Notes under the pieces: generated by a model | Databases searched by the model: none | The model's input: only the letters and a program-made list of their open reading frames with translations | What the model was told of the DNA's origin: nothing | Shown here: in pieces, positions 33,437 through 64,000 of the stretch | Numbering within the stretch: the stretch's first letter is position 1 | Layout: every line of letters starts with the position of its first letter | NCBI RefSeq assembly: GCF_006345805.1 | Contig: NC_043006.1 | Coordinates: 4,898,001 to 4,962,000 of the forward strand | Length of the DNA stretch: 64,000 bases | Reading direction: 5' to 3' | Source: Octopus sinensis | Taxonomy: Eukaryota | Position numbers and translations under genes: made by a program

Positions 33437-36400
33437 ATTTATTTCATTTATTACTACTTTCAACATGTTCCTTTGAAATTTGTGTACCAAAACACTTTGA
33501 TATTCAAAAGAAATTCACAAAAGGATAAAGAAGTGGATACAATCAATTAGTGTGTATCTTTAATTAATGATAAAATCCTTTCTTGGAATAATAATTTTGC
33601 TCCATCGCTAAAGTCCTGACTAACACCATTGTATACAGCGTCTTCTTACAGGGAGACAAACGTTAAAATAATTTGTAAGATAAGTAAAAATTATGATACT
33701 GTAAATTTTAATTGTTTTGGAATAAAAATTAAATTTATGATGTCGAAACGTATGAATCAAGAAAAGTATTTCGGTTAATTTTGACGAACGCAAAGGTTTA
33801 ATATTTTAGGGAGGTCGGTAATTAAAACCTTTGATGCTTATACCTTTTTTTTTCTAAGAGCGTTAGTAGTATAAGTGAAGCTAAGTATCATCAGTCGATA
33901 CTCGGAGACTGTAATTTCGGTTAAATGTAACCTTATTCTTTACTATATGGCATTCTGCTATTCCCGAAATTGATTAAAGAGGCATAAACACTCACGAACA
34001 CATTTCACAGAGACAAATATATGTTCAAAATAATAAGTTTTGTAGTTAAGCAATTCTTACTAGTCTTTTATTAGTTATCAAAATAATGTCTGTATATTTT
34101 AATAAAGCATTATCGAAGTTTTGTATCATATCCTGACTCCCTAAAAGAAATATGGCTGTTTATATTTGGACTAACATGTAATATTTTTTAAATTTTACCT
34201 ATGTCTTTTTCCCTCTTAACTTTTCATATTATTGCACTTGAGAAATTACAGAAATCTTCATGTCATTTCTTCACCTATTCTCTACTCTTTTATCTAATTA
34301 TATTTTGTTCTTTTCTCTTTATCAAATAGAATGTGAGTTTTTACTCACATTCTATAATTTTGTTCCAGTTTTAATATCTAATTTTATTGGCATCCCTGTA
34401 TTAACCCACATTTCATTATGAAGTTTGTCTTTACACATATATATATACATATGAAATGTCGGTTAAAGAAGTCAATTCTATAACGAAAAAAGTGTTTAGC
34501 TCAAAATATGTTTTACTACGTACCTTGCTCTATTTTCTATGAACACCATAGTCCTGAATGGACAAATTCTCGAAAGAGTTAGAAATTTAAACTAGAAATT
34601 ATGAATTACAACATAAGATGGATTATAAAACTTATTTCATCAGTTGTCATTGTTTCGATAGTGTAAGAATTCCTTAAGTTCTGAGTTCAAATCCTCCTAA
34701 AGTTATTATTTTATAGTGTACTTTTAAAATTGGCTCATCAATTCATAACTCATTCTGTTAAATTATTCTTTTATATAATATTCTTCAGTATATTTAACAG
34801 TTTTCCCGTATGAAGCTACTTCCTTTTACCATTTAACAATGATCTTTATTTAACTGGGATGAACATATCATTGATGATAAATAAAGCCATATATTTTATA
34901 GACATGTTACTGGAACATTAGTAGACTTTAATTTTATTATATAGACCGCCAACCGTATTTTACAATAGTTAACGCTAATTTTTCCATTCTTTAAAATTTT
35001 CAGTATTCATTAATACTTACAGGCTTTGAATCTTTTCAAACCTTTGAAAATATGTTGTATTATTATCATGAAATTAAAAATGGCGAGTGATTTCACAAAA
35101 ATCCTTCCTACAGTTTTTATGAAAATGCTTGTATAATTACATAAGTATACCGGTATATTCGTGTATTTTATAAGCAAAAATGGGTGGATATAATTATTTT
35201 TTAAATAACTAAAGAATTGTGCACTGATTCTCAAAAAAACTTCGTTCAATCAATAATTAGTTCAATGAGTTAATCCATCTCCACAAATTATATCCATCGT
35301 ACTCAAACACTTTCTTAGAAAAACGAAAATAACAAAAAGAAATCGTTTTCATTTTAAAATTCTTTTAAGCTCGGACTAATATCCTGTTGCATGTATCTCC
35401 ATAGTTTGGCAACCATTTCTGAAGTGGTTCTCCTCAATTATCTTTGTGTTTTGATAAGCAGGTGTATTCATTTACATGAATCAATGTGAAAACGTAAACT
35501 AATATTACTTTGCAAAAAACTTTTCTTAAAAAAAAAAAAAAAATTAAAAACTGTTGGTTTGCCCTTGTAAAACCATTTATCATATTCTATAGTTGATTGG
35601 AAAACCATTTATTTACTTTGTCTTTAATAAAACGGCCAAGCTACTTCTCATGATATCATTGAACAGTTGGTTACTTTAATGCACTGCTATAGGTTACGAA
35701 TATATAAATATTCACCAGAGTCAGGGATATAAGACTTTAATTTGATATCAATAAAAACTCTCTTGTGACTAGAATCTATTTATAAATAAACAGAAAAATG
35801 TATGCCTTACTTTAAATGAATTGGAACAATGATATCTATGAAGAAATATTTTCGAGTTGTTTACTCGCCCACCAAGACAATACTGGAACACAACAGAGAA
35901 CTGCTGAGATAAAGCAGGTTGTTGGCACTAATATCCCGCTAAAAAGGCGTAGGCGATATATCCTTGGAAGGGCTCACTGTTTCATAGTTTTTAGTGTCTG
36001 TTATTGGAATCTATTTTCCTTAAACAACTCCTAGCAGGATCAGACACCTAACAAATGTTATAAACGCCCGTGCACTCCATTAGCGTAAACACAGAAACAT
36101 CAATAAGATCTTTGTATAAACTTACTTCCACGTTATGCAAATATGAATTAATGGAAATGCAGACATACAATTCTAATGTTTTTTTAATAATTAAAATAAA
36201 CAAAATAACCAGTCAGTAGAGCTTCAAATTGCTGTTTTCCTTTCCTATTCGGCTCCAATTACAAATTTGCTAAACACACACAGCGACCCGCTCGCACGCA
36301 TGTATGTATATATATTATATATTATATTTAATAAAAGAATTCCAACCTTGTCTGATTTTCACGTTTTATTTACAATCTTATAATGATATATTATAAGATA

Positions 36401-36998
36401 ATATATTATATTGAATAAAATAAAATGAAATAGTAGAATGTTAAATATTCATTCTGATTGAACTAGTACTTTCATGCATTGAATTCTGCAATCTTCGGTT
36501 CATGTAGTAGTGTTGACAGTCATGCTTCACAATTTTTGACTGTAGCAAGATGATTGATTCTGTGCTATAAATACAGCTGGGTAGGCTCCAGAGTGCTAGG
36601 TTTTGCAAACTGTATTCTGACCAATCAGTGTGTAGTATCACTCAATTACTTAAGCTGATTGGTTGGTTGAGCTGATTGGTTTAGGCATCACGCTTTGTTG
36701 GACATGTCAAGAGTCCTGTATCTTGACCCTGGCCGAAGCAGCAATTGTTGGGTTATTTTTAGAAATGTTGTAATATCCTTTGTCAGAGATTTTTATATTT
36801 TTATATTTCAATTGTCATCATCATCATTGTCACACCTTAATTATTGTTGCTAGTGGTGATGGTTATGGCAATAGAACTTTAAACCCTAAATAAGATAATT
36901 TTCCTGCTATCTTCGTCTTGATCACTTTAGTATTGTTGTTGTTGTAGTGGTCATGGTCGTAGCAGTGGAAGTAATACCTCTAAGTATTATTATTATTA

Positions 36999-39045
36999 TT
37001 ATTGCTTATTTAGCTTGGGTTCGAATTTATCAATAAAATTCTTTTCTCTGATTTTCCTCTCGATTTCACTTGGGCTGTGTAATTTGTAGAATGGAAATAT
37101 TATATATATTTTTCCGACCACATGTTGCTAGGTGGTTACTCAAAGGTATTTGACGTACCTCGGGTCTCTAATCTGTTGCCGGTGTACACGTGAGCGTTCT
37201 AATAGTGCGTTTCCCGTCTGACCTACATATATTTCTTCACAATTTGGGCATTTGATGCAGTAAATAAATTTCTGCTTTTGCAGTTCATATTCGCGTTTGT
37301 GAATATTTTCCCGGTTTTTGTGTTTATATATTGACCGGTATGTATGAATTGGCATGTGCCACATCGGCTATCATTGCATTTAGATACCGTGAAGTTTGGT
37401 CTTTGTTGCTGAGGTCAAATTTTGCCTTTGTTAGTAATGTTTTCAAGTTTTTAGGCTGTCTTTTACTAAGCACCATAGCTCGATCCGTGATTATGTCTTT
37501 TAATTCATTACTTTGGGCAATGATTGGTAGGTTTGCTTTGGCAATGTTGAAGATATTCTGGTGACATGGGTTGTGTGTCACTATGAATGGTATGACTTGT
37601 TCTTGTTTTCCTCTTCCTTGGGTTGTCCTAAGTTGTTGTATAGGTATTTTTATATAGCCCTGTATGCCATTTTCTATAAGTAGAGATGGGTATTTTTGTT
37701 TGAGCAAAAATTCTCTTAGTTCTATTAGGCGTTTTGTTCCTGATATTTGCATCTTCTACAATAGTAACAAATTCTTCTGGCTAGGCAGTATGGGATGTTA
37801 CGTTTTGTATGTGGTGGATGGCACGACTTAAAATTTAGGTATTGATGTGTGTCTGTGTGTTTATAGTATATATCTGTGGTGATGGTGGTGTCTTTTTTTA
37901 TTACCATTATGTCCAGGAATGGTAATTTGGTACTACTCATCTCCTTTGTAAATTGGAGAGATGGGTGTAGGTTGTTCAGGAGGATATTGAACTCTTCCAG
38001 AGTATTTAGAGATTCTGTCCAGATTATGAAACAGTCGTCTAGGTATCTCTTCCATGCCTTTTCAATATACTTTCTAAACCCAGTGCCATAGTTTACCTCC
38101 ACCTCTTGGTAGAGTTGTTCTTCTAAGTATCCCATTACAGAGTTGGCGTAAACGGGAGCAAACCTCGTTCCCATCGCCGTGCCTCTAATTTGGATGTAAT
38201 TCTTTCCATTGAAGAAGAATGTGTTATTTTCTAGAATGAGCTTGACTGTGTCTAATATAAATGGCACTGTGAATCTGCTGGGAATCACTTCTCTATGTTT
38301 TTCTAACCAGTATTTAATCGCCTTATTCCTAAATCGTGTGGAATATTGGTGTAGAGGCTTACCACATCAAAACTTAGTAAAACTGAATTTGTTTCTGTTG
38401 TTTTGGGAAGATGGGACAGGAAGTCGATGTCATCCTGATGAAACTTGGTATGTAAGTACATAGTGGTTTCAAAACAATGTCAATAAAATTGCTTAGACGG
38501 TGTGTAGTGCATGCTGGACCAGCTATAATAGGTCTAAGTTTTAGGTCTTTTGGATGTAATAATTTATGTACTCACTTTCTTGTTCTTTTACTGCCTGTTG
38601 AATGTTTTTTGATTTGTGTACTTTTGGTAAGCCGTAGAAGTTGCTGGGTTTTGGTTCAAAATTGGTGATGTAGTCTTTTTCATTATCCGTAAGTGAGTTG
38701 TGGTGTGGTTGAAATCAGGTTGTTGATCTTTTTCATGATGTGGTGGTCTATATTGCGGGTATTTTCACAATAGAAGGTTGTATCCTTCAGTTGGTCTTCA
38801 ACCAAATCCTTATAGTATTCGGTATCCATAATAACAATTGCACCACCTTTATCTGCTTGTTTAATTATTATTGTTTGATCGTTTGTATACGTTTACATGC
38901 AGACATCTCTGATTTGCTAATGTTGGCCTAACATTGGTATTGCGGTCTAAGGGAAATTTAGACAGGATATCAATGTATTGGTCAAGGTAGTTATTCTTCC
39001 TTTTGGTGGGGTGAAATTTGATTTATTCCTTACTAGGGATTCATC
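36999..39045 (-). pseudogene. Penelope-like retroelement: frameshifted RT plus GIY-YIG endonuclease
   Basis: RPIIAGP, GTAMGTRFAPVYAN, WKRYLDDCF, LPFLDIMV, YKHTDTHQYL..SCHPPHTK, LLKQKYP, and the GIY-YIG motif FIYCIKCPNCEEIYVGQTG..ERSRVH. It ends REKNFIDKFEPKLN, and the 5' side runs into (TA)n. Confidence 0.93.
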
Positions 39046-61883: not shown

Positions 61884-62752
61884 TTGATTTGATTTTGATT
61901 TTGATTTTGATTTTTTTTCCAGTTTCAGCTAATGAGCTGTGGCCATGCTGGGACACCGCCATTTGGTTTGCTACACGGGTTTACCTCACGGATGCTTTTT
62001 AGCAAACGCACCTGATGCATGAGAGAGTTCGATGCAGCTGCCCTCATCTGCACCTCCTGCCGTGAAGTTGGTTCATCCGGGACACCTGACAGGAAGAGAT
62101 CCAGTCCTACTTTAAAGACATCCGCATCTACACCATGCAGGTCCCTCAGGTTCTTCGGGAGGACATTGAAGAGCCGTGGGCCTCTGAAGCCCAGGCTATC
62201 ACAATATCTTGTCCTACATCTTGATGGCAAATTTGGAGTCCTTGGTACTACGCAGAGTGGCGTCCGGTTCTGGCGTTTGTGTGACTCTCGATGCCAAAGT
62301 GAGACAAGACCTTCCAGGATCTTCCAGATATATATTATGGCATATCTTTCTCGCCTACGCTCCAGGAAGGAATAGAGCTTTAATCTCTTGAGTCTCTCCC
62401 AGTAGCTCGTATGCTGCACAGAGGCATCTTCTTCGTGTGCTTCGTTGGATCGCCTCAAGTTCTGTGATCAACTTGACACTGGATGGTGACCTAGCTGAGA
62501 GAGCAATAGTCAAAGTGGCTAGAGACAGTGTCTTCCAGAGGACCATCATGGTTTCTTGTTTTCTTGTTCTAAAGGTTCTAAGAATCCATCCAGCCAGCCG
62601 TCTGCATTTCATTGTCAGTTTAGCAACATGTACATGAAAGGTCGCGTCATCACTCATGTGTGATACCCAGGTCACGCACTGATTGTGCCTCTGGGATTGC
62701 AATCCTTCCGGGTCCAGTGTATTCATTGGGTATTGCATGCAGTTTTGCATAT
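61884..62752 (-). mobile_element. CR1/L2-group LINE 3' end (ORF2 C-terminus, 3' stem-loop, (AAAATC)n tail), 5'-truncated and lying inside a (TA)n field
   Basis: [35 protein letters not shown].., [69 protein letters not shown]. Confidence 0.9.
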
Positions 62753-62754
62753 AT

Positions 62755-62792
62755 GTGTATATATATATATATATACACATATATATATATAT

Positions 62793-62828
<36 letters not shown>

Positions 62829-62843
62829 CACATATATATATAA

Positions 62844-62881
<38 letters not shown>

Positions 62882-62882
62882 C

Positions 62883-62913
<31 letters not shown>

Positions 62914-63190
62914 CATATATACATATATATATATATATACATATATATACATATATATAAATACATATATAATATATATAGATATATTATATATATATAT
63001 ATATATATTACATATATATATATACATATATATATATAACATATATATAAACATTATATATACATATATATATATACACACATATATATTATATACACAC
63101 TATATATATATATACATATATATATACATACATATATATATATATATATATATTATATAATATATATATATTATTACATATATATATATA
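62755..63190. repeat. (TA)n field; another lies at 61385-61883
   Basis: Directly visible. Confidence 0.95.
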
Positions 63191-64000
63191 TAATTAATCA
63201 AATAGGGTGGCAAAAAATTTTGTAGAATTTTTTTGCCACAGCGGCCTAGTGGGAAAAAATTAAATAGTCATAGACCATTTTTAATTCAACATCACAATCA
63301 AGGAACGGCCATAATAGGCCATTCACCCACTAGAAATAACAGCCAAAAGCTTCAACCGCAAAATAACATCAATTCCGTAAACCAGGAGAAAATTAAAAAA
63401 CTTTACCCTGTAATTTCTTATACGATGCACCGTTTCATCCACTGTTTAATGGTAAACTAACCTGATTAAATTAAATCAAGCCAATCTACCATAGCCCTTA
63501 GATTCATCATCAGTAAGAAATAGCCAAGTCGGAACAGATATTTTTCACGAGGCATTCCCGTCCCTGCCTCGGCAATATCTGACCTAAAATTTTCAAATCA
63601 TCGCACTCGCGCCAAATTTATCGCAGCAAATAAATATAAGCCGCCGATTCCATTACGGAATTAACCAGAAAACTCATAATTAATCAATATAGGGTGGCAA
63701 AAAATTTTGTAGAATTTTTTTGCCACCAGCGGCCTAGTGGGAAAAAATTAAATAGTCATAGACCATTTTTAAGTTCAACATCACAATCAAGGAACGGCCA
63801 TAATAGGCATTCACCCACTAGAATAACAGCCAAAAGCTTCAACCGCAAAATAACATCAATTCCGTAAACCAGGAGAAAATTAAAAAACATTTACCCTGTA
63901 TTTTCTTATACGATGCACCGTTCATCACTGATGATGTAATGGAAACTAACCTGATTAAATTAAATCAAGCCAATCTAACATAGGCCCTTAGATTCATCAG
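63191..64000. repeat. Tandem repeat with a ~487-bp unit (63191-63676; second unit from 63677 runs off the window end)
   Basis: TAATTAATCAA..AGGGTGGCAAAAAATTTTGTAGAA.. restarts at 63677. The copies differ mainly by small indels. Confidence 0.95.
63413..63521 (-). ncRNA. Type I hammerhead ribozyme motif with extended stem II
   Basis: Minus strand: stem I ATTTCTTA, core CTGATGA(+TGA), stem II ATCTA..[19-bp hairpin]..TGGAT, core GAAA, stem III C-GGTGCATC-G, cleavage triplet GTA, stem I' TAAGAAAT (8 bp, perfect). The second copy at 63902-64000 has the uninterrupted CTGATGA-ATCTA. Confidence 0.75.

Follow-up and report, generated by a model that had tools for sequence, protein, structure and literature searches.

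The window, by which we mean the whole 64,000-nt stretch of Octopus sinensis DNA that was analysed (NC_043006.1, positions 4,898,001 to 4,962,000), ends inside a tandem array on its minus strand. The complete array occupies NC_043006.1:4961190-4963091 (contig C10 in our analysis) and runs past the window end to window-equivalent position 65091 (locus extract L011, 2190-4091); it is a single arm of 1,902 bp, or ~3.9 units, in a host genome assembly of 2.72 Gb. The insertion is 5'-truncated, at unit position 278, and AT-rich (AT)n runs lie on both flanks. TRF, applied to 55-64 kb of the window, did not report the array, of which fewer than two units lie inside the window. The features are as follows.

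62749..63192, unstranded: (AT)n microsatellite, the insertion target and 3' flank of the array
63190..64000, minus strand: 3' part of the single-arm tandem insertion (~3.9 units in all)
63190, minus strand: long site T, the 3' end of this insertion and putative second start site of reverse transcription
63190..63290, minus strand: the ~104-nt "tail" between S and T, with a hairpin (63239-63206) conserved in related families
63291..63326, minus strand: hairpin and short 3' end site S, ~129-131 nt past the cut; internal in this array, although about half of all arms end here, and putative first start site of reverse transcription
63413..63521, minus strand: predicted type I hammerhead, copy 1; stem I 63521-63514/63420-63413, CUGAUGA 63513-63507, a private TGA insertion directly after it, stem II base AUCUA/UGGAU, extended by a long G.U-rich hairpin, GAAA 63436-63433
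63422..63433, minus strand: stem III of copy 1, either 4 bp and a UGCA tetraloop (monomer) or a 12-bp self-complementary duplex (dimer)
63421/63420, minus strand: predicted cut of copy 1, after GUA
63421..63908, minus strand: one full 488-nt non-coding unit, from predicted cut to predicted cut
63901..64000, minus strand: predicted type I hammerhead, copy 2; CUGAUGA 64000-63994, GAAC for GAAAC, predicted cut 63909/63908, 5' strand of stem I beyond the window end

The microsatellite is adjoined by a LINE-like 3' fragment (61925-62750, minus strand), which ends in a short (TCAAAA)n and has no Pfam match; we take it to be CR1/L2-like.

Re-reading of the minus strand at 63521-63413 recovered each element described there in an earlier note on this DNA (CUGAUGA, the extra TGA, GAAA, and the GUA cut), and the GAAC reported for unit 2 is present in the sequence. 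A script placed the predicted cuts at the same positions, with the same spacing of 488 nt. The two window units are identical at 311 of 332 aligned columns. The family unit is 489 nt long with 37% GC, and the claim that it contains no meaningful ORF holds: the longest ATG ORF on either strand of the tripled unit is 26 aa.

Hammerheads were scored against a full descriptor consisting of CUGANGA and GAAA cores, an NUH cut site, and three stems, with stem I open (type I). Neither of the two window copies passes; both further copies in the same array do, as do 94 of the 118 units parsed from 20 loci, a count that is not complete since the anchors missed some units. Shuffled unit dimers gave no descriptor match in 2,000 trials. 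Given that the further copies are intact and the family mostly so, the window defects are private indels, from mutation or long-read error, rather than a family trait. The suggestion of one defect per window copy and a canonical consensus was correct, and complete folds prevail among the sampled units.

In the commonest exact hammerhead variant, present in 46 of the 118 units, stem I is 8 bp long and is followed by CUGAUGA; the stem II base is 5 bp long and leads into a 7x7 internal loop and a hairpin of 19 bp, rich in G.U pairs, after which comes GAAA. Stem III comprises A-U, C-G, G-C, and G.U pairs closed by UGCA, and the predicted cut follows GUA. The description of the stem III loop as too tight to close was overstated, because 4 bp with a UGCA tetraloop form in the monomer, at ~-0.8 kcal/mol; the 12-bp self-duplex reaches -17.5 kcal/mol. 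Stem III is thus marginal as a hairpin and strong as a dimer duplex, so that monomer and dimer folds are both possible, and on these calculated energies dimeric cleavage would be possible but not forced. RNA of the hammerhead strand folds better than its shuffles (z -6.85), and, folded as a circle, it reaches -149.8 kcal/mol versus -108.2 kcal/mol for the opposite strand. The minimum free energy fold, however, sequesters the ribozyme core by pairing and lies ~3.4 kcal/mol below the open-core fold, which is a point against activity.

A proposed check with covariance models did not recover the motif: the Rfam hammerhead models gave no match to the unit at gathering score, at E<=10, or at E<=1. 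The hammerhead call accordingly rests on the descriptor and on covariation; the ~60-nt stem II extension may account for the Rfam result. Across subfamilies, stem positions change on both partners (U-A/C-G in stem I, A-U/G-C in stem II, and G-C/A-U/U-A in stem III), N7 is free, the cut base varies, and GAAA and the palindromic UGCA loop are invariant; this comparison includes relatives of 70-78% identity, harvested with UGCA as a requirement and with overlapping loci counted more than once. When 13 hand-picked related rows were aligned (stem II is misregistered in 5 of the 13), 90.5% of the cells were paired, compared with 26-46% when the alignment was slid. As judged from these sequences, the ribozyme is kept under selection by compensatory stem change. 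Descriptor, covariation, and genome-wide arrays together bear out the original reading of a tandem repeat in which each unit carries a predicted type I hammerhead.

The family is abundant. A 20-nt pattern from the 3' core has 2,680 exact matches in the genome, and two other exact patterns have 2,149 and 657, the last representing part of the family; reversed-pattern controls gave 0 in every case. Arrays occur on many large contigs, the full-length matches listed are 92-98% identical, and arrays hold up to 22 scored units, with up to 17 in a single arm. A search of public runs with the unit found it in 24 runs from 9 studies and 4 organism codes; 18 are presumed to be RNA, none being listed as such. 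Contigs from four of the runs (three organism codes), whose RNA status is a guess, cover parts or most of the unit; they carry no strand, ends, or level and so give no indication of transcription. One of the four matches through a lone contig of 478 nt that differs by 16 substitutions.

We next consider the relation of the unit to Penelope-like elements (PLEs). The unit was fused to a PLE or reverse transcriptase (RT) ORF in none of 20 10-kb loci around arrays and none of 20 around isolated matches. Apparent pLTR-ORF neighbors at L020, L134, L135, L216, and L270 were rejected, as (AT)n separates the unit from the PLE piece, and visual inspection of four neighboring PLE pieces showed that (AT)n, and in most cases further DNA, lies between them and the unit. 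Locus L201, with two arrays 3.6 kb apart, contains neither an ORF of 300 aa nor a PLE match. With no fused ORF, and with PLE neighbors set off by (AT)n, the unit was in none of these loci the pLTR of an ORF-bearing PLE, and of the two options that the earlier note had weighed, an ordinary pLTR and an independent element, the 40 sampled loci favor the second. The units could still be pLTR remnants, that is, 5'-truncated copies of an autonomous ORF-bearing PLE outside our sample; such copies would leave an identical insertion footprint, and there are thousands of PLE RT candidates beyond those scored. Arms that string together as many as 17 units of 489 nt, head to tail and without an ORF between them, 5' ends scattered within the unit, and the lack of fusion in the sampled loci make this very unlikely. 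At L270 (3623-4210), a two-armed retrozyme insertion lies in an (AT)n run directly behind the 3' end of an autonomous PLE, a nesting that arises because both elements use the same (AT)n target.

The window itself contains a PLE (36330-38990, minus strand; ORF pieces 37324-37755 and 37725-38366), which is 5'-truncated and frameshifted. It belongs to a young family, and other copies of that family keep an open frame, 775-777 aa long, that includes RT and GIY-YIG domains and a linker Zn-finger motif. By that motif the family is Neptune-like, a label taken from PMC8557442. A minimal hammerhead-like motif, with CCGAAGA as its core, is present in the 3' region. A search for partners by blastn, local alignment against shuffles, and an nhmmer tail profile detected no pLTR similarity to the unit among ~8 sampled PLE families, the window family included, which are part of the PLE families of the genome. 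As judged by eye, hammerhead-like motifs of autonomous PLEs (L226 6150-6340, L216 3660-3520, L263 6230-6370, and L329 2940-3100) have the non-canonical cores UUGAAAA, UUGAAGA, and CCGAAGA and a short, mostly palindromic stem III; unlike these, the retrozymes keep a canonical CUGANGA.

The ends of the insertions are informative as to how they arose. We scored 111 de-duplicated outer ends, 96 of them 3' ends, and 55 delimited insertions, in a non-random sample made up of the best matches and the first matches on contig C1. Outer 3' ends fall at S, 128-136 nt past the cut, in 49 of 96 cases and at T, 232-239 nt past it, in 44, with 3 elsewhere; AT runs abut 92 of the 96. Two inverted arms, with 3' ends on both sides, were found in 40 of the 55 insertions, and 37 of these 40 pair one S with one T end, with no S-S or T-T pair and one irregular end in each of the other 3. 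Three of the 37 (L218-L220) are near-identical, 348-349 bp long, and within 270 kb on contig C1, and probably go back to a single insertion that was subsequently duplicated. Either of the two arms can be the longer one, and 5' ends are ragged and spread along the unit.

This footprint, with fixed 3' ends, a one-sided tail, an inverted 5'-truncated copy, and an AT or microsatellite target, is of the PLE type. PLE insertions are described as partly tandem and biased toward microsatellites, with a 5'-truncated copy in inverted orientation and a tail on one side (PMC8557442). In vitro, the anole PLE protein acts on either strand of AT-rich DNA, which it both cuts and extends, and two internal start sites on its RNA bound the tail (PMC11167929). 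The S and T ends, together with the inverted copy and one-sided tail, match both descriptions, and by analogy S and T would fit the two internal RT start sites known for a PLE protein. Autonomous PLEs of this genome also end at two distances from their hammerheads (one family, for instance, at 102-105 or 130-133 nt, and a second at 47-49 or 197-200 nt), as gauged by a crude first-AT-run measure that is unreliable where an element has internal AT runs. Mobilization by Penelope-like machinery is, in our judgment, very probable. The earlier proposal of a non-autonomous retroelement moved by the PLEs of the window thus stands in its first part, given the PLE-type ends and the dispersed young arrays; its second part gains no support, as the window PLE family has no detectable sequence similarity to the unit.

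Two other origins are judged by the same ends. An ordinary satellite or minisatellite, amplified by local unequal crossing-over and carrying a fossil hammerhead, would account for the tandem layout and the within-array homogeneity, and local amplification has been proposed for retrozymes (10.64898/2026.07.22.740005). Many dispersed short arrays, fixed 3' ends, (AT)n flanks, inverted arms with variants in common, and covarying stems are not what it predicts, and the end statistics largely exclude it; we consider it extremely unlikely. The mobilizer might instead be a non-LTR LINE of the CR1, RTE, or R4 type acting by twin priming, which is known for L1. LINE-like RT ORFs do occur in the sampled loci, presumably of the CR1, RTE, or R4 families. 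The units, however, have no poly(A) or short-repeat 3' tail, and two fixed internal starts with a one-sided tail are a feature unique to PLEs according to PMC11167929, so that a LINE mobilizer is barely credible.

Sequence variants bear on the template of the copies. In 218 units from 43 arrays, with homopolymers masked, the mean level of substitution is 0.86% for units of the same arm, 0.92% for units of opposite arms, and 3.1% for units of different arrays. Several variants confined to one array are present in every unit and both arms of that array; in arrays of >=4 units, 168 shared variants are fixed versus 38 partial, one example of the latter being two neighboring L174 units that share four. 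Variants common to all units and both arms indicate that one unit sequence was read repeatedly. We found no pile-up of 5' ends at the cut site, with 4 of 107 listed starts there and 2.6 expected (12 of the 107 are spurious hairpin self-matches); such an excess had been sought as a trace of in vivo cleavage. The missing pile-up implies a template continuous across the cut site. A ligated monomer RNA circle is the simplest account of the template of both arms, and probably the right one; Cervera and de la Pena (PMC7229834) likewise model the RT template as a circle.

An alternative is that PLE machinery used an uncut linear multimer, or a linear monomer re-used by template jumping, with circles absent or a by-product. 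It explains the missing 5' ends equally well, a homogeneous young source array would yield homogeneous daughters, and in the anole system hammerhead mutants had no effect on in vitro insertion and no RNA-seq reads ended at the cut (PMC11167929). Against it, transcripts of up to ~8 kb with up to 17 mostly intact hammerheads would have to survive, a single-unit bottleneck is needed for new variants to become fixed in every unit and both arms, and compensatory change keeps the ribozyme. We regard a linear template as unlikely, and favor the circle.

The unit has relatives in the same genome. Family A' is 76-78% identical to it; family B, which is older, is ~63% identical, with 1,552 first-look candidates (L081-L110, e.g., L092 1250-1830), different stems, a GUC cut, and the same two end positions; family C has 2,223 candidates (L233-L262, e.g., L242) and a near-palindromic 12-nt stem III. 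All three have hammerhead-bearing units, two ends into (AT)n, and a common tail motif, which was found in no sampled autonomous PLE. The 3-kb loci of families B and C (30 loci for C) contained no PLE ORF. Another tandem unit, at L231 7932-8541 with a ~505-bp period, is weakly similar to the tail profile and is possibly a further family. Further isolated type I hammerhead families occur at L066, L229, L147, and L213; those at L066 and L229 are similar to the PLE family of L329-L358 at its 3' end, of which they may be non-autonomous relatives.

On every feature checked from sequence, the octopus repeat belongs to the metazoan non-LTR retrozymes, with cleavage and circles as predictions. Like the coral, Mytilus, and axolotl retrozymes of PMC7229834, it is a non-coding tandem repeat whose GC is below 45% and whose units each carry a single type I hammerhead, with a short stem III with a tetraloop and a dispersed high copy number; PLE mobilizers and a circular template were proposed in the same paper. 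It differs in unit length (489 nt versus RNAs of 170-400 nt), in its long G.U-rich stem II extension, and in the GUA triplet, and no description of strict (AT)n targeting, fixed S and T ends, or inverted arms was found in the parts of that paper compared. Cleavage and circles were demonstrated there and are predictions for the octopus unit. The vertebrate non-LTR retrozymes of Li, Clavereau and Pollet 2026 (10.64898/2026.07.22.740005) are likewise tandem, carry type I hammerheads, and co-occur with PLEs, and their size range of 51-972 bp includes the octopus unit. That preprint, which sampled vertebrates, insects, and one anthozoan, argues that retrozymes derive from PLEs; its link to PLEs consists of co-distribution and pLTR homology, whereas ours is the insertion footprint, pLTR homology not having been found. 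A plant LTR retrozyme, with a type III hammerhead in paired LTRs, a PBS, a PPT, and a 4-bp TSD, was ruled out, the octopus unit being type I and head-to-tail with no LTR pair.

With EN+ PLEs (Craig et al. 2021, PMC8557442; anole Poseidon PAc, Frangieh et al. 2024, PMC11167929) the unit shares partial tandems, an inverted copy that is truncated at its 5' end, a tail on one side only, targets in AT or microsatellite DNA, and two internal RT starts downstream of the hammerhead. In contrast to them it has no RT/GIY-YIG ORF, and its tail is ~104 nt rather than 30-40 bp (PMC8557442, PMC11167929). It also strictly pairs one S with one T arm, whereas the PAc start site showed no strand difference in vitro (PMC11167929). 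The Chlamys MRC1 elements (PMC8557442), non-autonomous PLE passengers with multicopy head-to-tail insertions, are a further parallel. Our literature search, which covered mainly the main texts of open papers, found no paper on a cephalopod retrozyme, and the words ribozyme and retrozyme occur 0 times in the main text of a 2026 repeat annotation for Octopus vulgaris. Strict S and T pairing and the evidence for a single template had no earlier description in the portions of the retrozyme and PLE literature compared.

We conclude that the repeat is probably a non-LTR retrozyme relying on a PLE for its reverse transcriptase-endonuclease, most plausibly with a monomeric RNA circle as template. In the cycle that we envisage, an array would be transcribed on the hammerhead strand, and its hammerheads, as monomers or dimers, would cleave after GUA, releasing 489-nt monomers to be closed by a host ligase, as in the coral, mussel, and axolotl retrozymes. 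A PLE protein would bind the 3' region, nick (AT)n, and start cDNA at S (~131 nt past the cut) or T (~235 nt). Both target strands would prime, one at S and one at T, yielding the two back-to-back arms whose geometry is observed. The enzyme would go round one template up to ~17 times per arm and stop at random, in keeping with the observed homogeneity and ragged 5' ends. Two published results are counterpoints: unprocessed RNA was the main substrate of the anole PLE in vitro (PMC11167929), and 1 of 9 predicted Xenopus retrozymes cleaved in vitro (10.64898/2026.07.22.740005).

A bolder version, to which we lend slightly less belief than doubt, is that each insertion records one PLE dimer at work on one RNA circle, and that the families (at least A, A', B, and C) form a long-lived lineage of PLE-parasitizing circles. 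The two active sites would start 104 nt apart, at S and T, each primed by one cut (AT)n strand, and both would roll round the circle. If true, the genome would provide direct evidence that animal retrozymes retrotranspose by a rolling-circle route and that PLEs use their two start sites in a strand-coupled way.

Retrozymes are a known class, and their dependence on PLEs and a circular template have been proposed, with no demonstration found in the parts of the literature compared. Since the octopus family is young, abundant, and clean-ended, genome sequence by itself could fix the putative start sites of reverse transcription, the target, and the descent of both arms from a single template. 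The family adds a retrozyme superfamily missed by repeat annotation and Rfam, and it offers a short-RNA test bed for two questions: whether PLE enzymes roll round circles, and how the PLE tail and inverted copy originate.
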